From: Syntrophales bacterium
Lineage (GTDB): Bacteria > Desulfobacterota > Syntrophia > Syntrophales > PHBD01
DNA length: 64,000 nucleotides
NCBI GenBank assembly: GCA_963668175.1
Contig: OY764159.1
Coordinates: 1,952,001-2,016,000, forward strand
Direction: 5' to 3'
The notes beneath the pieces were generated by a model that was not told where the DNA came from, did not search any database, and saw only the letters and a program-made list of their open reading frames with translations. Numbering within the stretch: the stretch's first letter is position 1; each line of letters opens with the position of its first letter. Of this stretch, positions 2,034 to 52,402 are shown piece by piece. Position numbers and translations under genes: made by a program.

Positions 2034-3857
2034 CTAAAAATCGTCGTCCAGCGGCAATTCGGGTTGGCGTGGCCGGACGGATTTTTCTTTTCCCCGCGCC
2101 GGCGGCGCTGCATCGAGGACCGCATCCCGGGTGACGACCGCACCGGTATTGCCGCCCAGGACCAGGGACGACATATCCAGCACCATACCCTTCATCGTCG
2201 CGGCCTGGGAGGACAGCTCCTCGGCCGCCGCCGCCGATTCCTCGGCGCTGGCCGCCGTGTCCTGGACGACCTTGTCCATGGCGGATACGGCCTTGTTGAT
2301 CTGGTCGATCCCCTGGGATTGTTCCTGGGAAGCCGTCGCGATCTCGTCGACGAGGCTGCCGACCTTGCCGGCGATCTCCACGTTCTCCTTGAATATCTCC
2401 TGCGTCTGCGTGGTCAGCTCGTTGCTCTTGCGCACAACCTTGATCGTGTTCTCGATCAGCACGGTCGTGTTCTTGGCGGCATCCGCCGCGCGCATGGCGA
2501 GGTTCCTCACTTCCTCGGCGACCACGGCGAAACCCGCCCCGGCTTCCCCCGCCCGGGCCGCTTCCACGGCGGCGTTCAGGGCGAGGAGATTCGTCTGGAA
2601 GGCGATCTCGTCGATCGTCCTGACGATCTTCGACGTCTCTTCGCTGGTCTTGGTCACTTCCTGGATGGCCGATGCCATATCGGTCATACGGTCGTTGACT
2701 TTGGAGACGATGGCCCTTGTTTCCGCCATCAGCGATTTGGCGGCTACGGCGTTCTCGGCGTTGCGCTTCGTCATGGAGGACATCTCTTCCAGCGACGACG
2801 AGGTCTCCTCGATGGCGGAGGCCTGCTGCGCGGCGCCGTCGGCCAGGGACTGGCTCGTCATGGCGACCTCGGAAGAAGCGGAGGCCACCTGATCGGCGCC
2901 CGCGTCGAGACCGCCGGATATCCTTGTGATCGGCCCGACGACGGATCGGACGATGAGAATGAGCAGGGCCATCAGAACGGCCACGCCGCCGACCAGGAGG
3001 ACCAGATTAACGACGGTCATCCGGTTCGCCGCGGCGAGCACTTCACTCGTGGGCGCCACCACCAGCACGGTCCATCCTACGTTCCGGCAGGGGTATAAAT
3101 AGGCCGTCCTCTTCGTATTCTGAAAGGTGTAGCTGATTTGTCCCTGCTTCTGCTTCATCATCTCCCGGCCGAACTCCTGATCCTTCAGGTTCAGTTTCAT
3201 GATCAGGCTCTTGTCCTTGTGGGCGAAGACAAGCCCGGTCTCTTCGTACAGGGCGACGTAGCCGGTGGTGAATACCTTCGCCCCCTCCACGAGACTCTCG
3301 CTGAACTTCACCAGATCCGGCACGCCGACCAGGACGCCGATCACCCGGTCGCCGTCCGTGATGGGCGAGGCGATGGCCAGGGACGCTTGACCGGTGGTGC
3401 GGGAGAGATAGACCTCGGAGACGTTGGTCTCGCCCTTCATGGCCTTCTGGAAGTAGGCCCGGTCCGGGACCTTGACCTTGCCGATGGCATCCGGCATCGA
3501 CGATGCGACGACATTGCCTTGCTGGTCGGCGATATTGAAGTAGGCGAACCCCGAGGTGGCCTTGACGATTTCAGCCATGGCGGCGTTCGCGATGCCCACC
3601 GACTTTTCGTCCCCCGATTTCAGGACGTTCCTGAAGACGTCCCGCGGGGCCTGCGTACGCACCGTGGACATGGCATTGGCCACCCACAGGTCGACCAGGT
3701 TGGCCCTCGCTTCGCCGATCGTCCGGAACATCTCGGTCGCATTGTCGCTGAGCGTCCGGGACGAGATCCAGTAAGTGACGCCCGTGGATACGCCCATGGC
3801 GAGAACGACCAGTAAAAACGTCGGTATCAAAACCCTCTTCTGCAGACTCCAGCGCAT
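2034..3857 (-). CDS. Methyl-accepting chemotaxis protein with dCache sensor (tandem copy 1)
   Basis: Two TM helices, Cache-like periplasmic region ([11 protein letters not shown]), signalling tip [33 protein letters not shown]. Confidence 0.95.
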
Positions 3858-4297
3858 AGAACCTCCTTATTTTCCTGCGGCCGACACATGTGGCTTCCGC
3901 CGGTCGCCGGGGCTCGGCGAAACGGCCCTCCATCTTTTCCACCGCTTCGTGTGTTTCAAATGCGGAATGACGGAAACGCAGGTCAACCGCAAGTTGGCCG
4001 GCGGCATGGGGCCGCCGGGACCTGCTGAATATGATGATGGATAAACGGTTGGTTGATGAACGACGTTCGCTTGTCTACGGCCTTAAGAGAGATTCGGAAA
4101 CAACCGGGGAAAAGTGCGGGGAAAAGCAGGCTTTATATCGCTTCTGGTTGCGCGCGCAAGGGGAACGGGACCGATGCCCTCCTGTTTGTAAAATGGGGTC
4201 CGGCAAGTGCCTCCCCGGTATCGTGACCGACACCGGAAAATGCCGGCAACCGGCTGTCGAGGCGTCCCCCTCCGTGAATCGCCGCTACGTATTTTAA

Positions 4298-7076: not shown

Positions 7077-8387
7077 TTAGGAGGCCCGCGTCGCCGTCCC
7101 GGCATTCGTCACATTCTCTGAGGGGTTCATGGCGGCGGCTGGCAGGTCCGGATGTTTGGCTTCCGGCGGCAGGCGGAGGCCGCGCGAGGGGATGACGCCG
7201 CCCTGCATCCGCCTTATCTGGCGGACGGCCTGGCGGATGCGTTCTTCGTTTTCCACCAGGGCGATGCGGAGCCAACCCTCGCCCTCCGGCCCGAAGCCGA
7301 TGCCCGGCGCGACGACGACGTTGGCCTCCTCGATGAGCCTGATGGAGTAATCCATGGAGCCCATGGCCCGGTAAGGCTCCGGGATCTCGGCCCAGACGAA
7401 CATGGAGGCCTTTGGCTTCTCCACGGTCCAGCCGATGGCGGCGAGTCCGTCGCAGAGGCAGTCGCGGCGGCTCTCGTAAATGGCCGCCTGCCCGCCGATG
7501 AAGTCGTCGCAGTCCCGGACGGCGATGATCGCCGCGATCTGGACGGCCTGGAAGAGGCCGTAGTCGTAATAGCCCTTGATCTTCCCCAGGGCCTCGACGA
7601 TCCGCGGGTGCCCGGCGCAGTAGCCTACGCGCCATCCCGCCATGTTGTAGCTCTTGGAGAGGGTGCCGAACTCGACGCCGACGTCCTTCGCGCCTTTCGC
7701 CTGGAGGAAGCTCGGGGCCTCGTAGCCGTCGAAGGTCACGCGGCCGTAGGCATGGTCGTGGACGACGATGAGCTTGCGGCGCTTCGCGATCCTCACCATC
7801 TCCTCGAAGAAGGCGAGATCGACGGTCTTCGTCGTCGGGTTGTGGGGATAGTTCAGCATGATCGCCTTCGGCGCCGGCGTGAGCGTGCGGCAGAGGTCGT
7901 CCACGCTCTGCAGGAAGGCTTCGTCTTCGACGATGGGGACGCGGACGATGGAGGCCCCGGCGATCGTGCACGAATAGATATGGATGGGGAAGGCGGGCAC
8001 GGGGACGAGGGCGGTGTCGCCCGGCCCGAGCAGGACGAGCGACAAATGGGAGACGCCCTCTTTGGAGCCGATGGTGCAGAGGATTTCGCCCGCGGGGTCC
8101 AGGGAGACGCCGTAATGCCTCTCGTAGTAGCGGCCGATCTCGCGCCTCAGGTTGTAGATCCCCGAGGCCACGGAGTACCGGTGGTTCCGCGGGTCGTTCA
8201 CGACCTCGCAGAGCTTGTCCACGACGGGCTGCGGCGTCGGGTCGCTGGGGTTGCCCATGGCGAAATCGATCATGTCGATCCCCGCCTTCCTCTTCTCCAG
8301 TTTGATCTTATTGAGCCGCCCGAAGAGATAGGGCGGCAGCATGTCCATGCGGTCTGAAAATGTTACGAAGTCTTCTGTATCGTTCAT
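7077..8387 (-). CDS. alaC: Class I/II PLP aminotransferase, AlaC-like glutamate-pyruvate (alanine) aminotransferase
   Basis: Motifs as I recall them from E. coli AlaC: LPPY, DFxMGNP, TIGSKEG, PIHIY, TLSKSYNMAGWR, IKxYxDYG, PKASMxVWAxIPEPY, PGIGFG, ALxENxxRIRQA. Start moved to ATG 8387 (RBS AGGAG). DapL-like specificity is not formally excluded. Confidence 0.8.
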   Translation of the reverse strand: MNDTEDFVTFSDRMDMLPPYLFGRLNKIKLEKRKAGIDMIDFAMGNPSDPTPQPVVDKLCEVVNDPRNHRYSVASGIYNLRREIGRYYERHYGVSLDPAGEILCTIGSKEGVSHLSLVLLGPGDTALVPVPAFPIHIYSCTIAGASIVRVPIVEDEAFLQSVDDLCRTLTPAPKAIMLNYPHNPTTKTVDLAFFEEMVRIAKRRKLIVVHDHAYGRVTFDGYEAPSFLQAKGAKDVGVEFGTLSKSYNMAGWRVGYCAGHPRIVEALGKIKGYYDYGLFQAVQIAAIIAVRDCDDFIGGQAAIYESRRDCLCDGLAAIGWTVEKPKASMFVWAEIPEPYRAMGSMDYSIRLIEEANVVVAPGIGFGPEGEGWLRIALVENEERIRQAVRQIRRMQGGVIPSRGLRLPPEAKHPDLPAAAMNPSENVTNAGTATRAS

Positions 8388-8464
8388 GGCCGTTGTTCTC
8401 CTGAAAAATCGTCCCTCCGTTCGCCTGCCCTTTCGCCGCCGGAGGGGGGCGGGGAGAGGAAATG

Positions 8465-8495
8465 AAAAAAGCCCCGGACATATGCCGCCCGGGGC
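8465..8495 (-). terminator. Attenuator terminator in the alaC leader
   Basis: Minus strand GCCCCGGGC-GGCATAT-GTCCGGGGC-TTTTTT: 9-bp stem plus U6, 78 nt upstream of the alaC start. Confidence 0.85.
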
Positions 8496-8566
8496 CCTGA
8501 AAGCAGGAAGGCCATGGACGGCACGAATGCGACCGCCCATGGCCTTTGATGTCTTATGTGAAAAAG

Positions 8567-8653
8567 TTACAGGAAGGCATCACCAGCCATGGGCGGAAGA
8601 GCCCTGGCGGCCGCTGCTGCCGCTGCGAAATGGATCGTTCCCGTAACGTTCAT
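8567..8653 (-). CDS. Alanine-rich leader peptide MNVTGTIHFAAAAAAARALPPMAGDAFL (28 aa)
   Basis: SD AAGAAAGG 6 nt before ATG; GCA GCG GCA GCA GCG GCC GCC at 8606-8626; lies between the promoter and the terminator of alaC. Below the ORF-track size cutoff. Confidence 0.8.
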   Translation of the reverse strand: MNVTGTIHFAAAAAAARALPPMAGDAFL

Positions 8654-8666
8654 CTCATGCCTTTCT

Positions 8667-8844
8667 TAGCAGGCTGTTGAAAAACGCCCATCTGTCGCGT
8701 TGCGCTGCAAGCCGCGTCAATCGACATACTTCTATGTATGCCTCATTCCTTGGCTTTTGCGCGCCTTACATCTGGACATTTTTGAACAGCCTGCGTGCCC
8801 CCTGCATAGGGGGTTCAAAAGCGAGTTTTTCCACAAGCTGTTAG
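8667..8844 (+). mobile_element. MITE/REP-like non-coding repeat, copy A
   Basis: IR GCAGGCTGTTGAAAAA...TTTTTGAACAGCCTG plus outer end TTTTTCCACAAGCTGTTAG; a homologous inverted copy lies at 35137-35333. Confidence 0.8.
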
Positions 8845-8857
8845 AGTAACTTACAAT

Positions 8858-8886
8858 ATTAAATATCAGAAACCGCCGGTTGTCAA
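8858..8886 (-). promoter_or_regulatory. Sigma70 promoter for the leader-alaC transcript
   Basis: TTGACA-N17-TTTAAT on the minus strand. Confidence 0.65.
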
Positions 8887-9105
8887 TTTTTTTGTGACGG
8901 CGACAAGACGCGGCGGAATGGCACGTGCTGATGACCCGTGCCCAAGTCTTGCTTGCGTTGCCGTGTACACCTACAAGTCGATGACTTTGTAAATCTTTGA
9001 GAATAATGAACATCAGTAGAAATGTTAATCTAACGTCATCGATATTCTATTTTTGCAACGCATTCTTTTTTATATATATCTTCAGATCATGTTATTGGAT
9101 AGCTT

Positions 9106-10092
9106 TCATTTTACGGTAGATTGACAATTGGTTATGTTTTCAATTGCAGCCTTGATTTCATGCTCTGCCTCATTCCATTGATTATCCCAAGTTACCCTTG
9201 AATCCGCACTAAATGCCTCTGAAGCGAGCAGTTGAATCGATTTTAGTTGTTCTTTTAAAGCCGATATAATCTTTTCTCTGTTCGTCGCAGACATGAAACA
9301 AGGGGCAAACGAATCGCCTGTGTATCCATTGCCCAAAATGCTAACAACAGAACGTACTGTTTCAACTCTCTTTAATCCCTTGAATAGCTTGTCTAGATTA
9401 CGCTCTAAAGGTTTTATGTAGAGATCGCCCTCAGAATCATTAGATGTATAAAAGCTGCTAAGTGAATATCCAGCACTTGCTCTTACCTCTGAATTCGGAT
9501 CATTCGCTATTATATTGATTATCATGGGCACGAAGCGATTTGGCTTACCCCTTAGGAAAAATGCTGCCGTCTCCCTGACAGCGGGAGACTTATCTTTTAA
9601 CCCAAGCTCATTGTATTTATCCCTATCCTCACGCAACTGAAGATTGATTTTATGTAAGGCTTCTTGCCTAGCTTTTCCTGTTTTTCCATGAATGAACTTT
9701 ACAGTCTGGTCTTTAGCCGTAGATGGATCAACTTTTAGGTAGACGCAATAAACGCTGTAATTGTCTGACAAAGCTTTTTGTGCGTCGTCGTATAATTTTA
9801 CTCCGATACTTTCGTTAAACGTCTGACCACGTTCTATCCTGACAAATTTAAATTCGCATTTTGATGATGGTCTTCTAAGTTCAATAACTGAATATTCGCT
9901 TTCTGAACGGATTATTTTGTATGATGCCTTTTTGCATTCCTCTATACTTATTTTGTCTTTATCAAGAACAATGAATGATGACTGGCAGCCTCGTGAAAAG
10001 CCTTGATAGACGCCAAAGAAGGTATCCGTTGATCCTGCATAACAGGTAAGAGGCATGAAAACCAAACAACAAAAGATAATGTATTTTTTCAT
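9106..10092 (-). CDS. Secreted protein with C-terminal HEAT-like repeats, AT-rich (likely acquired)
   Basis: Signal peptide MKKYIIFCCLVFMPLTCYA; repeats LKDKSPAVRETAAFFL and ANDPNSEVRASAGYSL; markedly AT-rich DNA. Confidence 0.7.
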   Translation of the reverse strand: MKKYIIFCCLVFMPLTCYAGSTDTFFGVYQGFSRGCQSSFIVLDKDKISIEECKKASYKIIRSESEYSVIELRRPSSKCEFKFVRIERGQTFNESIGVKLYDDAQKALSDNYSVYCVYLKVDPSTAKDQTVKFIHGKTGKARQEALHKINLQLREDRDKYNELGLKDKSPAVRETAAFFLRGKPNRFVPMIINIIANDPNSEVRASAGYSLSSFYTSNDSEGDLYIKPLERNLDKLFKGLKRVETVRSVVSILGNGYTGDSFAPCFMSATNREKIISALKEQLKSIQLLASEAFSADSRVTWDNQWNEAEHEIKAAIENITNCQSTVK

Positions 10093-10442
10093 GGCAATAC
10101 TCTTATTAACGCTGATCGAAGATTTCCATAAACAGACTTGAAGCATTTCGTTGGTTGCAGATGAAATATCCTTTACTCATGAAAGACTGAAAATTCAATA
10201 GCAAAAAATATTAGCAAAAATATTAGAGTGCTGTTTCGGAATGGACTGAATTAGCAAGAGACTCAGTGCATGGCTATTTAAGAATACTATTTGAAAGGTT
10301 CTACGCCAGTTGTTAAACCATGTTTATTGAGTATAGGAAGAAAGTAATGAATGTGCCATCGCCGCCGCAATCGCTGTCAAGGTTATCCCGCTTAAAGAAA
10401 ACGCGGACGTTCCTTGCTCCGGCCTGCCGGCCCCGCTTCTCC

Positions 10443-10627
10443 TTACCGGCCCGGGCCTTCGCCGTAGACGGCGCATTCGAGGAACGCCTTGGCTGCGGAG
10501 GTCATGTACTTGTCCTTCCTGTAGGCGAAATAGAAATCCCTCGTCATGTCGACGCCGTCAAGGCGCAGCGATTTGATCACGCCCGGATGTTCTTCGCGGG
10601 CGATCGCCGCCCGGGAGATGGCGGAGA
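10443..10627 (-). pseudogene. Duplicated 3'-terminal fragment of the LysR gene
   Basis: Aligns without gaps to 12151-12335; encodes ...SRAAIAREEHPGVIKSLRLDGVDMTRDFYFAYRKDKYMTSAAKAFLECAVYGEGPGR*. Confidence 0.9.
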
Positions 10628-10696
10628 CGACCGATCCCGGGAGCAGGCAGCGACGAAGGCCGCCAAATTTTCACATTGCGCCCGCTTGCGACCGCA

Positions 10697-11713: not shown

Positions 11714-12150
11714 TTTCCTCTGTGTGATAAGAAATAAAATTCGCGCCCCCGGTTTGTTCGATCATAACGCCGGAAAATACCGGGGCGGCTGTCCTTCCGG
11801 CATGCAACGCGGGTATTCCGGCGCCGTTATTATTACATCATTCGCATCCGCTTTGCATGCTTTTCAATCGGTCTTTTCCGTTCAGGGGATGTCCTGTTCC
11901 CATGAAATGCAGTCAGCGGCGGATCGCCGGGGATATAGTATTATCCCCGGAACAACCGCATGCCGAGAGAAGTTTGCCGCGGCTTTCTTCCTGCCGGAGA
12001 CGGATTTTTTGCCGAAGACGTTTTCCTGCGGCATCGCGATGCAGGCATTCCCCGAGACGCCGATTCGGCCTGTTCGGAAGTTGGCCGAATCTTGCCGCCA
12101 TGCTGAACGCTTTCAGCGGAAAGGCGAATCATGTCTCGTGCCGCCGCGTC

Positions 12151-13050
12151 CTACCGGCCCGGGCCTTCGCCGTAGACGGCGCATTCGAGGAAAGCCTTGG
12201 CCGCGGAGGTCATGTACTTGTCCTTCCTGTGGGCGAAGTAGAAATCCCGCGTCATGTCGACGCCGTCGAGGCGCAGCGATTTGATTACGCCCAGATGTTC
12301 TTCCCGCGCGATCGCCGCCCGCGAGATAATGGAGATGCCCAGGCCGGACTCGACGGCCTTCTTCACCGCCTCCGTGTGGCCGAACTCGATGCAGTTCTTA
12401 AGGACGACCCCCGCCCGGCCAAGCCTCTCTTCGACGATGCGCCTCGTTCCCGAGCCGCGCTGGGAGATGATGAAGGGCTGCGCCGCGAGGGCGTGGGGCT
12501 CGACGGCGTCTTTCCGCGCCCAGGCGTGTCCTGCCGGGACGATCAGCACCAGCTCGTCCTTCATGAACGCGCCGGAACGGAGTTTCCCGTCGGCGACGGG
12601 GGCCCCGAGGAAGCCGATGTCGATGGCGTTGTCGAGGATCATGTCCGCGACCTGGCGGTTCAGGACGATGTCGAGGCTCAGTTCGATGCGGGGATGGAGG
12701 TGCCTGAACCGGCTCATGATCCCGGGCAGGATGTAGATGCCCAGTGTGATGCTCGCGCCGATCCTGAGCGACCCGCGCTCGAACCCCTGGAGTTCGTCGA
12801 TCTCGACCTTCGACTGGTCGATGGCGTTGAAGATCGTCTCCGTCCGGGCGTAAAGGACCTCGCCCGCCTCCGTGAGGACGACCTTCTTGCCCAGGCGGTC
12901 GAAGAGCCTGACGCCGTAGTAATCCTCCAGGTCCTTGATGTGCTTGCTGATCCCCGGCTGCGTGAGAAAGAGGGCCTCGGCGGCGCGGGTGAAGCTCTGA
13001 AGCTTCGCCGCCACGTGGAACACCTTGAGCTGGTTCAGGTTGACATCCAT
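12151..13050 (-). CDS. LysR-family transcriptional regulator (CysL-like)
   Basis: HTH NLNQLKVF...SFTRAAEALFLTQPGIS; SQRGSGTR; EAVKKAVESGLGIS; divergent from 13144 across an AT-rich spacer. Confidence 0.95.
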   Translation of the reverse strand: MDVNLNQLKVFHVAAKLQSFTRAAEALFLTQPGISKHIKDLEDYYGVRLFDRLGKKVVLTEAGEVLYARTETIFNAIDQSKVEIDELQGFERGSLRIGASITLGIYILPGIMSRFRHLHPRIELSLDIVLNRQVADMILDNAIDIGFLGAPVADGKLRSGAFMKDELVLIVPAGHAWARKDAVEPHALAAQPFIISQRGSGTRRIVEERLGRAGVVLKNCIEFGHTEAVKKAVESGLGISIISRAAIAREEHLGVIKSLRLDGVDMTRDFYFAHRKDKYMTSAAKAFLECAVYGEGPGR

Positions 13051-35136: not shown

Positions 35137-35333
35137 CTAACAGCTTGTTGAAGAACTCGATTATGAACCCCCTATGCAGGGGGCATACAGGCTGCTTGCC
35201 CCTTTCAGGGGGTTCAAAAACGTCCAGATGTAAGGTTTATCCCCTTTAGGGGACGCGCAAGACCCCCTGCGGGGACGCAACCCCCTATGCAGGGGGCACG
35301 CGCGACAGATGGACTTTTTTCAACAGACTGTTA
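35137..35333 (-). mobile_element. MITE/REP-like repeat, copy B, carrying five mini-hairpin inserts
   Basis: The reverse complement aligns to 8667-8844 (CTGTTGAAAAA, CATCTGTCGCG, CCTTACATCTGGAC, TTTTTGAA, CAAGCTGTTAG). Confidence 0.85.
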
Positions 35334-49540: not shown

Positions 49541-52402
49541 ATGACAGATAAAACGAGAAAAAGCATCATCGAAAAGGCTACGGCGTCTTTGCTCGCCGAC
49601 AGCAGCGTGCTTTCGGAATTGACGGCCGATAACGGCAGAGGAAAGGGAAAACCCATGAAGAATATGGAAGACACAAGGAAAAGCGCAGGCTCGAACGGAT
49701 CGGAGGCAGGCGAAAGGATCGGGGACCTGCTGGCCGCTTTCAGGGAAGGCCGCCTCGACCGTCGCGCCGACGTAAGCGGGATGAAAGGCACGGACAGGGA
49801 TATCCTGGCGAACGTCAACGAGCTCATCGATACGGTCGTCATGCCCCTGAACGTGGCCGCCGCGCATGTCGAAGACATCAGCAAGGGCGTCATCCCCGCC
49901 AGGATCACCGACCCCTGGCACGGCGAGTTCGATACGATCAAGAACAACATCAACAAGCTCATCGACGTTCTGGAGAGCCGCGGCCGGGACGTGCACGGCC
50001 TCATCGAGGCGGCGATCGAGGGAAAGCTTGCAACGCGGGCCGACACGAGCGCTTACCAGGGCATCCACAAGCAGGCCATCGACGGCGTCAACCGGCTCCT
50101 CGACGCCATCATCGGGCCCCTGAACGTATCGGCCGAGTACGTGGACCGGATCGCCAACGGGGAGATTCCCCCGAGGATCACGGACACCTATAAGGGCGAC
50201 TTCAACGAGATCAAGAACAACGTCAACAAGCTCCTCGACGTGCTGACAAGCCGGGGCAGGGACGTGGACGGCCTCATCAGCGCGGCGATCGAGGGGAAAC
50301 TCGCGACAAGGGCCGATTCCGGCTCCTACCAGGGCGTCCACAAGCAGGCCATCGACGGCGTCAACCGTCTTCTCGACGCCATCATCGGGCCCCTGAACGT
50401 GTCGGCCGAATACGTGGACCGGATCGCCAACGGCGAAATCCCGCCGCATATCACGGACACGTATAAGGGCGACTTCAACGAGATCAAGAACAACGTCAAC
50501 AAGCTCCTCGACGTGCTGACGAGCCGCGGGCAGGACGTGGACGGCCTCATCAGCGCGGCGATCGAGGGGCGGCTCGCGACAAGGGCCGATTCCGGCTCCT
50601 ACCAGGGCATCCACAAGAAGGCCATCGACGGCGTCAACCATCTTCTCGACGCCGTCATCGGGCCTCTGAATGTGTCGGCCGAATACGTGGACCGGATCGC
50701 GAACGGCGAAATCCCGCCGCATATCACGGACACGTATAAGGGCGATTTCAACGAGATCAAGAACAACGTCAACAAGCTCCTCGACGTGCTGACGAGCCGG
50801 GGCCGGGACGTGAACAACCTCATCAGCGCGGCGATCGAGGGGAGGCTGGCGACGCGGGCCGATACCGGCGCCTACCAGGGCATCCACAAGAAGGCCATCG
50901 ACGGCGTCAACCAGCTTCTCGACGCGGTGATCGGGCCTCTGAACGTCGCGGCCGAGTATGTGGACCGGATCGCCAACGGCGAAATTCCCCCGAAGATCAC
51001 TGACGCTTACAACGGCGACTTCAATATGATCAAGGACAACATCAACAAGCTCCTCGACGTGCTGACGAGCCGGGGCCGGGACGTGAACAACCTCATCAAC
51101 GCGGCGATCGAGGGGAGGCTGGCGACGCGGGCCGATACCGGCGCCTACCAGGGCATCCACAAGAAGGCCATCGACGGCGTCAACCAGCTTCTCGACGCGG
51201 TGATCGGGCCGCTGAACGTCGCGGCCGAGTATGTGGACCGCATCTCGAAGGGCGACATCCCCCCTCCGATCATGGACAACTACAAGGGCGACTTCAATGA
51301 GATCAAAAACAATATGAACATGCTGATCGAATCGATGAACGAAATAACCCATGTGGCCAGGGAAATCGCCGGCGGCAACCTCACGATCGAGATCAGGGAG
51401 CGTTCGGCCCAGGACCACCTGATGCAGGCCCTGGTCCTCATGGTGAAAAATCTGACGGAGGTGGTCGGCAACGTCCAGGCGGCGGCCGCCACCTTCGCGG
51501 AAGAAAGCGAGGAGATGAATTCCCGTTCCCTTACCCTATCCCAGGGGGCGACAGAGCAGGCGGCTTCGGCCGAAGAGGTGTCCGCGTCGATGGAAGAGAT
51601 GGCCTCCAACATCATGCAGAACGCCGACAACGCCCAGCAGACGGAAAAGATCGCCGTCAAGTCGGCGGAGGATGCGAAGGACGGCGGAGGAGCCGTCGCC
51701 GAGACGGTGAAGGCGATGAAGGAGATCGCGAGCAAAATATCCATCATCGAGGAGATCGCCCGCCAGACGAACATGCTGGCCCTCAACGCGGCGATCGAGG
51801 CGGCGCGGGCCGGGGAACACGGGAAGGGATTCGCCGTGGTGGCCGCGGAAGTCCGCCGCCTGGCCGAGCGCAGCCAGACGGCGGCGGGCGAGATCAACCG
51901 CCTGTCGGCGTCGAGCGTGCAGGTCGCCGAGAAGGCCGGGGATATGCTGACGAGGATCGTTCCGGCCATCCAGAGAACGGCCGACCTCGTCCAGGAGATC
52001 AACGCCTCGAGCAACGAGCAGAAGAACGGCGCCGACCAGATCAACCGGGCCATACAGCAGCTGGACCAGGTCATCCAGCAGAACGCGGCGGCGGCGGAAG
52101 AGATGTCGTCCGCATCCCAGGAACTATCCAGCCAGAGCGAAGTCCTCCTCGATGCGGTGGGGTTCTTCAGGACGAAGAACGGTTACGGCCGGGAAGAACG
52201 CGAAGGCGTACGCCTCCACGGAGGCGGACCGGCCCGCAAGGGCGCCGCCCCGGTGCGCAGGATCGCCGACAAACCGGCCCCCTCGGCGGGCCGCCCGCCC
52301 CGCCGCGGCGCAAGAACGGGAAAACCCCCGGGGTTCTCGCTCGACATGTCCGAAGCCTTATCGATGCGGGACGATGAGGACAGCGAGTTCGAGAAATACT
52401 GA
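49541..52402 (+). CDS. Soluble poly-HAMP methyl-accepting chemotaxis protein
   Basis: RBS AAGGAGG; tandem 91-aa HAMP-pair repeats; [21 protein letters not shown]-terminal EFEKY. Confidence 0.93.
49844..51330 (+). repeat. 273-bp intragenic tandem repeat (5 full units plus 1 partial)
   Basis: The PLNV codon block recurs at 49844, 50117, 50390, 50663, 50936 and 51209. Confidence 0.95.

Follow-up and report, generated by a model that had tools for sequence, protein, structure and literature searches.

Can a bacterium gauge its alanine supply by letting a ribosome read a short run of alanine codons just ahead of a gene for alanine synthesis? The question is raised by a 64,000-nucleotide (nt) stretch of contig OY764159.1 from a Syntrophales bacterium (hereafter the window), in which the leader of an AlaC-like aminotransferase gene contains a small upstream open reading frame (uORF) with seven consecutive Ala codons. 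Leader-peptide attenuation is familiar for Trp, His, Phe, Leu, Thr and Ile/Val, and alanine has been seen as controlled chiefly at the protein level. We propose, at odds of roughly two in three, that this leader is a his-type ribosome-mediated transcription attenuator tuned to alanine, controlling a monocistronic AlaC-like transaminase gene. A Shine-Dalgarno (SD) site, the uORF, pairing segments 0 to 5, a U6 tract, a 77-nt spacer and the alaC-like gene follow one another, the arrangement recurs at orthologous genes, and its helices overlap. The elements of the leader and its gene are as follows.

8667-8660, minus strand: SD-like AAGAAAGG, 6 nt from the uORF ATG; anti-SD duplex -3.3 kcal/mol
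8653-8567, minus strand: uORF of 28 codons plus stop, with the peptide MNVTGTIHFAAAAAAARALPPMAGDAFL (ORF translation)
8626-8606, minus strand: seven-Ala run GCA GCG GCA GCA GCG GCC GCC, which is segment 0, the 5' arm of a protector helix
8596-8585, minus strand: segment 1, CCGCCCAUGGCU, within the uORF and 9 nt past the Ala run (stem search, constrained folds)
8546-8532, minus strand: segment 2, AAGGCCAUGGGCGGU (stem search, constrained folds)
8524-8508, minus strand: segment 3, anti-antiterminator with segment 2 and antiterminator with segment 4 (folds)
8499-8482, minus strand: segment 4, 5' arm of the terminator and 3' arm of the antiterminator (consensus scan, folds)
8481-8465, minus strand: segment 5 and the U6 tract (8470-8465), 3' arm and tail of the intrinsic terminator (consensus scan, folds)
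8402-8397, minus strand: SD AGGAGA of the aminotransferase gene
8387-7077, minus strand: AlaC-like class I/II aminotransferase, 436 amino acids (aa) (NCBIfam, homology)

An earlier reading of this DNA, made from the letters alone (the sequence-only reading), had already placed the SD site and the 28-aa ORF here, and both lie at 8653-8567 and just ahead of it on the minus strand as described, with 10 of the 28 codons specifying Ala and seven of these consecutive. The mutually exclusive segments 1 to 5 that it had drawn were likewise recovered by a stem search and constrained folds. The overlapping pairings exist, and their helices are slightly longer than its lengths of 11 base pairs (bp), 14 bp, 14 of 16 pairs and 9 bp:

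Helix 1:2, 12 bp, -23.3 kcal/mol
Helix 2:3, 15 bp, -26.9 kcal/mol
Helix 3:4, 9+6 bp with a 2x2 internal loop between, -24.1 kcal/mol
Helix 4:5, 13 bp including pairs that reach into the U tract, -22.7 kcal/mol

The energies of these four successive helices are balanced, between -22.7 and -26.9 kcal/mol. Segment 1 has two alternative partners, the Ala-run region and segment 2. With the former it forms the protector helix, a feature absent from the sequence-only reading, whose local fold has a minimum free energy (MFE) of -30.3 kcal/mol. Since the Ala run itself pairs with the region holding segment 1, it counts as a sixth segment, a protector like that of the his leader, giving six in all. The default state therefore has three hairpins (0:1, 2:3 and 4:5) and the alternative state has two (1:2 and 3:4). 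The intrinsic terminator on which such a leader depends was called by a consensus scan at 8498-8468 on the minus strand, with a T-rich tail, in agreement with the 4:5 hairpin and U6 tract seen earlier. As a whole, the 211-nt leader folds with an MFE of -102.5 kcal/mol as against -73.1 ± 4.8 kcal/mol in 200 dinucleotide shuffles (z = -6.17), none of which was as stable. The U tract ends at 8465 and is followed by the 77-nt spacer up to the start of the alaC-like gene at 8387.

Within that spacer, on the minus strand, CCCTCCG (8446-8440) and CGGAGGG (8419-8413) might pair into a 7-bp helix just 5' of the alaC ribosome-binding site, as judged by eye.

How would such a leader sense alanine? If the uORF is not translated, hairpins 0:1, 2:3 and 4:5 would form and the default outcome would be termination at about 8465. 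When charged tRNA-Ala is ample, the ribosome would reach the stop codon, where segment 1 is covered or lies right behind the ribosome and could not close a helix; 2:3 would then form first and 4:5 next, and transcription would end near 8465. With little charged tRNA-Ala, the leading ribosome would stall in the Ala run, melting the protector 0:1 and leaving segment 1 free past its 3' edge. The free segment 1 would catch segment 2 as it emerges, segment 3 would then pair with segment 4, and the terminator would be blocked. Read-through would allow alaC to be transcribed and alanine to be restored.

If the leader has a function, related genes might be expected to carry it too. A profile built from the enzyme and 27 homologues and searched against genome contigs gave at least 80 loci, the best of them 61% identical among the matches listed. 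The 400 nt 5' of the start codon were examined in 79 loci (176 nt in L002 and 299 nt in L049); L061 was left out because its match starts at the contig end, with no upstream DNA. A uORF with at least five consecutive Ala codons is found at two of these 79 loci among the matches listed:

-222 to -150 relative to alaC, L004 (a Syntrophobacteraceae bin): uORF with five consecutive Ala and an ATG start, MMIPVVLLAAAAAFRSAWVPVGV
-206 to -158 relative to alaC, L010 (Desulfosarcina cetonica): uORF with five consecutive Ala and an ATG start, MNLHHAAAAATDSVH

In both, a GC-rich hairpin and a U tract come next, ahead of alaC. The L004 terminator was called by the scan at 2912-2936, followed by T8; that of L010, which has a 10-nt loop, was missed by both scans and is visible in the folds. 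The sequence-only reading had staked itself on the presence of Ala-rich uORFs in orthologous leaders, and it was right in this respect, as they occur together with terminators at the two nearest GC-rich orthologues listed. A looser search (at least four Ala per eight residues) returned ORFs in 18 of the 79 loci, and none besides those of L004 and L010 has a run of five; the others look like the ends of upstream genes or long GC-rich frames. The three leader peptides, of 15-28 codons, have nothing in common besides the Ala run, so that the codons are what is conserved.

In a maximum-likelihood protein tree with 80 rows (the 79 loci plus the window, without L061), the window gene, L004, L010 and L001-L003 form one clade of six Desulfobacterota genes (support 100/96), in which L004 and L010 are sister genes (support 100/89). 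These two proteins are 72% identical to each other and each is about 61% identical to that of the window, so that identities stay within 60-72%. Two of the five other genes in the window's clade thus carry the leader, and its distribution on the tree takes two changes, such as a single gain plus a loss within the AT-rich Desulfobacula lineage. RNAalifold recovered the protector (the Ala run against the downstream part of the uORF), the 2:3 hairpin and the terminator in all three leaders, from an alignment that is shaky.

Three loci of this clade show further details. In L004 (2871-2910), a 15-bp 2:3 hairpin followed by UUUUU lies ahead of the main terminator, which makes two terminator-like hairpins in tandem; with its U5 tail the 2:3 hairpin may itself be a first terminator, whose loop-proximal arm would be captured by segment 1. 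In L010 (2983-4202), the alaC reading is interrupted 340 codons in and resumes in a different frame, giving ORFs 2983-4005 and 3912-4202; the cause is either a frameshift or an error in the draft assembly. L001 has a GC-rich hairpin, GCAGGG...CCCTGC with a T7 tail, at about 2850-2900, about 110 nt 5' of its leaderless alaC, and a 14-codon ORF without Ala codons precedes it.

Does a ribosome on the Ala codons select the predicted structure? We folded the leaders with a ribosome mask, in which an assumed footprint is held unpaired; it starts 15 nt 5' of the A-site codon and ends 9-15 nt 3' of it. The model is an equilibrium one, and the counts below state in how many combinations of a codon position with a footprint edge the antiterminator state is the MFE; "before segment 5" denotes a transcript ending just ahead of the emergence of segment 5, which is the decision point.

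Window, before segment 5: Ala stalls 24/49; stop codon 0/7; no ribosome, terminator path
Window, full length: Ala stalls 0/49; stop codon 0/7; no ribosome, terminator state
L010, before segment 5: Ala stalls 35/35; stop codon 5/7; no ribosome, antiterminator state
L010, full length: Ala stalls 27/35; stop codon 0/7; no ribosome, terminator state
L004, before segment 5: Ala stalls 0/35; stop codon 0/7; no ribosome, terminator path
L004, full length: Ala stalls 0/35; stop codon 0/7; no ribosome, terminator state

In the 24 favourable combinations of the window the structure is 1:2 plus 3:4. When the two states are forced and their energies compared, the antiterminator gains about 4-9 kcal/mol on an Ala stall in each of the three leaders. 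For the window the balance stands at +4.5 with no ribosome and at +3.4 when one occupies the stop codon; a stall at Ala codons 5-6 takes it to -4.3. The corresponding values in L004 are +9.0 and +10.4 against +3.8 to +4.0 on an Ala stall, and L010 moves from -4.3 to between -10.1 and -6.7. The sequence-only reading had an Ala stall giving 1:2 with 3:4, and ample Ala-tRNA giving 2:3 with 4:5. Within this equilibrium model the masked folds show such a switch in the window before segment 5 and in L010 at full length, with 2:3 (and 4:5) when the ribosome is at the stop codon or absent, and those of L004 do not.

The Ala run could also matter as RNA. In this alternative, the leader would be a structured RNA with a terminator that answers to something other than a translating ribosome (for instance a metabolite, a small RNA or a protein), with the GC-rich GCGGCCGCC conserved as RNA and an ORF that is incidental. 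In each of the three leaders a conserved helix indeed has the Ala run as its 5' arm, GCGGCCGCC is common to them at the nucleotide level, and the SD match of the window is modest at -3.3 kcal/mol. However, all three runs are in frame with an SD-preceded ATG and reach a stop codon before segment 2, which the other two frames do not offer, and the differences within the run sit at third codon positions. The window uORF is the only frame over its Ala run with a start codon, and in the window, L004 and L010 alike the Ala frame is the sole one with both an ATG and an SD-like site; the anti-SD duplex energies of the three leaders are -3.3, -6.4 and -3.2 kcal/mol. The start codon and ribosome-binding site that define leader-peptide attenuators are therefore present in all three. 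A cmscan of Rfam over 8000-9300 at E <= 10 found no leader or T-box family; its nine weak matches (E >= 0.11) are terminator-driven small-RNA look-alikes, all below their gathering scores, and the best is Spot_42 with 22.7 bits against 80. We consider a switch without a ribosome decidedly improbable.

Protein sequences were also searched for traces of the leader. Exact look-up of seven small, antisense or N-terminally extended ORFs that overlap the leader found none of the seven in the protein collection, and the N-termini of 18 homologues held no usable translated 5'-untranslated extensions.

Leader-peptide attenuators cluster codons for the amino acid that the downstream enzyme makes, and here the Ala codons precede an enzyme that best matches alanine transaminase, a specificity predicted from its sequence. 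The exact 436-aa sequence is present in a public protein collection, and its best NCBIfam match is PRK08175, alanine transaminase, which it matches at 512.5 bits where the cut-off is 647. To enterobacterial loci its identity is 49-50% over residues 13-404, near full length; one of these loci, L038, is 84% identical at the nucleotide level to the annotated E. coli alaC. The homology to named alaC genes is thus full length, and all of them fall in one tree. Its homologues in Syntrophales metagenome bins reach 96% identity, and the label "alanine-synthesizing transaminase" is given to them by several sources. The AlaC-like assignment of the sequence-only reading accordingly holds for the best match and the roughly 50% identity to enterobacterial genes, at a score below the cut-off of the model. 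The nearest solved structure is 2x5d, an unnamed "probable aminotransferase".

LL-diaminopimelate aminotransferase is the less likely assignment by sequence score: models of that name score 470.8 bits and below, less than the AlaC model, and their cut-offs are missed too.

Could the run have arisen by chance? GCN runs can appear by chance in GC-rich DNA (about 0.60 here), as the sequence-only reading had itself noted, and an ORF of such codons might stand beside an ordinary terminator or palindrome with no part in regulation. We simulated 283-nt sequences with a first-order Markov model trained on the window (100,000 trials each). A run of at least five Ala codons in a closed ORF has a probability of 0.0005 per 283-nt leader, and one of at least seven a probability of at most 0.00001, which argues against chance. 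Among 1,172,714 nt of strand examined there are 30 runs of at least five GCN codons, eight of them in ORFs of at most 70 aa; three of these eight belong to the leaders described here, one is the antisense image of the window's run and four lie elsewhere. On both strands of the 64-kb window, the uORF holds the only small-ORF run of at least seven GCN codons besides its own antisense image. No other stand-alone leader emerged from a search of the window for homopolymer-codon uORFs ahead of terminator-like sites; the other matches look like the C-terminal ends of longer ORFs, sliced at 260 nt.

A related possibility is that the leader is a relic, cut from its promoter by a repeat insertion, and the upstream side of the locus bears on it:

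8886-8858, minus strand: promoter-like TTGACA (8886-8881) and TTTAAT (8863-8858) with a 17-nt spacer, a putative promoter read by eye
8844-8667, minus strand: repeat of roughly 178 nt with terminal inverted repeats, resembling a miniature inverted-repeat transposable element (MITE), between the putative promoter and the uORF SD
35137-35333, plus strand: second MITE-like copy, its conserved blocks 88-90% identical and its middle variable

This MITE-like element, roughly 180-200 nt long, has the termini TAACAG..TTGAAAAA and internal CCCCCTATGCAGGGGG palindromes. Its first copy, which the sequence-only reading had not noticed, abuts the SD: it terminates exactly at the first A of the uORF SD, 14 nt ahead of the ATG, and therefore now belongs to, or interrupts, the 5' region of the alaC leader. 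Directly 5' of the leader, an AT-rich island spans about 8900-10300, with a GC content of 0.35-0.40 against about 0.6 elsewhere, and the promoter-like pair sits at the edge of this island, just 5' of the repeat. The pair is missing from the consensus scan because the scan demands an A at position 2 of the -10 hexamer; the -35-like TTGACA hexamers are by-eye readings. The repeat so close to the ATG, the AT-rich island just past it and the absence of the leader from L001-L003 would all fit a relic or a chance ORF. Against this, besides the probabilities above, the same arrangement stands at the same place in two of the 79 orthologous loci listed, both in the window's clade, and the uORF, its SD and all five segments are intact. 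We therefore hold a chance or relic origin to be quite unlikely.

The AT-rich island looks like acquired DNA and carries a 346-aa ORF (9106-10146, minus strand). Just past it are direct 200-nt repeats of 90% identity (10433-10632 and 12141-12340).

How does an alanine attenuator compare with known systems? Among the closest is hisL of Salmonella and E. coli, which has a short leader peptide, seven consecutive His-pathway codons and a six-segment logic. Both leaders place seven consecutive codons for the amino acid of the pathway in a short leader peptide, and in both, three successive hairpins can re-pair as two and the last of the three is an intrinsic terminator, with termination as the default (a predicted one in the window). 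Unlike hisL, the window leader is directed at alanine, precedes a single transaminase gene rather than an operon, has no sequence similarity to hisL and belongs to a Desulfobacterota host. With the trp, leu, thr, phe and ilv leaders it would share the principle that the position of the ribosome on regulatory codons picks the antiterminator or the terminator; its pairing segments exceed the four of the trp design by two. T-box leaders read uncharged tRNA and make a terminator/antiterminator choice. The signal, tRNA-Ala charging, and the kind of choice would be the same here; the window leader, in contrast, has neither a specifier loop nor a T-box sequence, and sensing would be by a ribosome on the uORF.

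PMC2965389, a survey of attenuators that discusses the general class, has no alanine case, the word alanine occurring 0 times in it. For alanine, the relevant precedent is mycobacterial whiB7. According to Poulton et al. (PMC10274678), the whiB7 uORF is specifically enriched in Ala, and starvation for alanine induces whiB7 via antitermination at a Rho-independent terminator; the alanine aminotransferase gene aspC is in turn activated by WhiB7. The authors term this an "Ala leader" mechanism, and PMC13236596 repeats the whiB7 Ala finding. The two systems share an Ala-enriched uORF; whiB7 also has the stall-induced antitermination and the restoration of alanine via an alanine aminotransferase that are proposed for the window. 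By the same accounts, the whiB7 circuit differs in acting through a transcription factor on aspC's own promoter, whereas the window attenuator would act in cis on the transaminase gene. Its uORF, as described there, is longer and diverse and senses antibiotics and many starvations, in contrast to the 5-7 consecutive Ala codons of the present leaders and the 28-codon uORF of the window. Mycobacteria and Desulfobacterota also belong to different phyla. With an aminotransferase as its downstream gene and a uORF of 28 codons, the window leader does not fall within the whiB7 type. Full-text literature (about 8.1 million PMC papers and 0.36 million preprints, a set that excludes subscription-only papers, older comparative-genomics surveys of attenuators among them) gave whiB7 as the sole precedent and no such attenuator on an alanine synthesis gene. 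The statement in the sequence-only reading that no alanine attenuator had been characterised has to be qualified for the Ala-enriched whiB7 uORF (PMC10274678), which works by way of a transcription factor and not in cis on the enzyme gene.

A further possibility is that the leader is an attenuator that responds to translation stress in general, like those of whiB7 and erm: any slowing on the uORF, whether by antibiotics or by starvation for several amino acids, would lead to read-through, and the run would just raise the sensitivity to alanine somewhat. An identical anatomy would answer any stall 5' of segment 1, and the Ala-enriched whiB7 uORF answers many starvations and ribosome-targeting drugs (PMC10274678). 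But the uORFs described here are very short (15-28 codons), 5-7 consecutive Ala codons are their sole common feature, and the gene under control encodes an alanine-synthesising transaminase and not a stress regulator. A general stress attenuator is, in our view, unlikely.

Several results weigh against an alanine attenuator and have to be set beside the evidence for it. At full length, the terminated fold of the window leader is the MFE in 49 of 49 combinations, so that the model needs co-transcriptional kinetics. L010 discriminates poorly at the decision point, where the antiterminator also wins in five of the seven stop-codon combinations, and its leader folds no better than shuffles (z = -1.14). 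L004 shows no switch in this equilibrium model, and its helices 1:2 and 3:4 are weak (-7.3 and -10.0 kcal/mol). There are three instances only, two of them from sister genes, so that the number of independent observations is in effect two or three. The leader is missing from L001-L003 of the same clade (in L002 the upstream sequence is limited to 176 nt), and the L001 and L003 leaders are AT-rich, without Ala-rich uORFs. No Syntrophales orthologue is among the matches listed, homologues of 70-96% identity being seen as proteins alone. The covariation term of RNAalifold is unfavourable (+1.44), similarity between the leaders is not significant (nhmmer cross-hits at E 0.17-0.95), and nhmmer profile and single-sequence searches found no further leaders among the 80 loci listed plus the window. 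The palindrome GCGGCCGC occurs within GCN runs, which are also rich in GC, so the run may have a role at the RNA level. On the upstream side, consensus promoter scans beside the uORFs of the window, L004 and L010 gave nothing convincing, and in the window the promoter side has been remodelled by the repeat element and the AT-rich island. Finally, the aminotransferase scores under all NCBIfam cut-offs.

With these points taken into account, we still favour the his-type attenuator tuned to alanine. We also lean, a little less firmly, towards a wider proposal: the leader, which may be called alaL, would be an Ala-specific attenuator ancestral to the Desulfobacterota alaC clade, lost in the AT-rich Desulfobacula, and the first case of alanine synthesis under direct control in cis by a ribosome stalled on a run of Ala codons. 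If this is true, attenuation would extend to a new amino acid and to the Desulfobacterota, and there would be independent regulatory evidence that a poorly assigned aminotransferase subfamily serves alanine synthesis. It would have a parallel in the recently described whiB7 circuit, by which mycobacteria sense Ala indirectly, and would make tRNA-Ala charging a monitored quantity in syntrophic anaerobes. A further gain would be a compact Ala-responsive genetic switch open to testing.

Past the stop codon of the aminotransferase gene, the consensus scan found two more features:

7030-7014, minus strand: weak terminator-like hairpin past the aminotransferase stop codon
6898-6869, minus strand: next promoter-like site after the hairpin

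The gene looks monocistronic because the weak terminator-like hairpin and then a new promoter-like site lie at its 3' side; the sequence thus suggests a transcript confined to the alaC-like gene.

Elsewhere in the window there are two tandem arrays, at 868-1572 and 49813-51204, of five 141-nt units and of five 273-nt-spaced units (60-79% identity), and both are presumably repeat-domain coding sequence.

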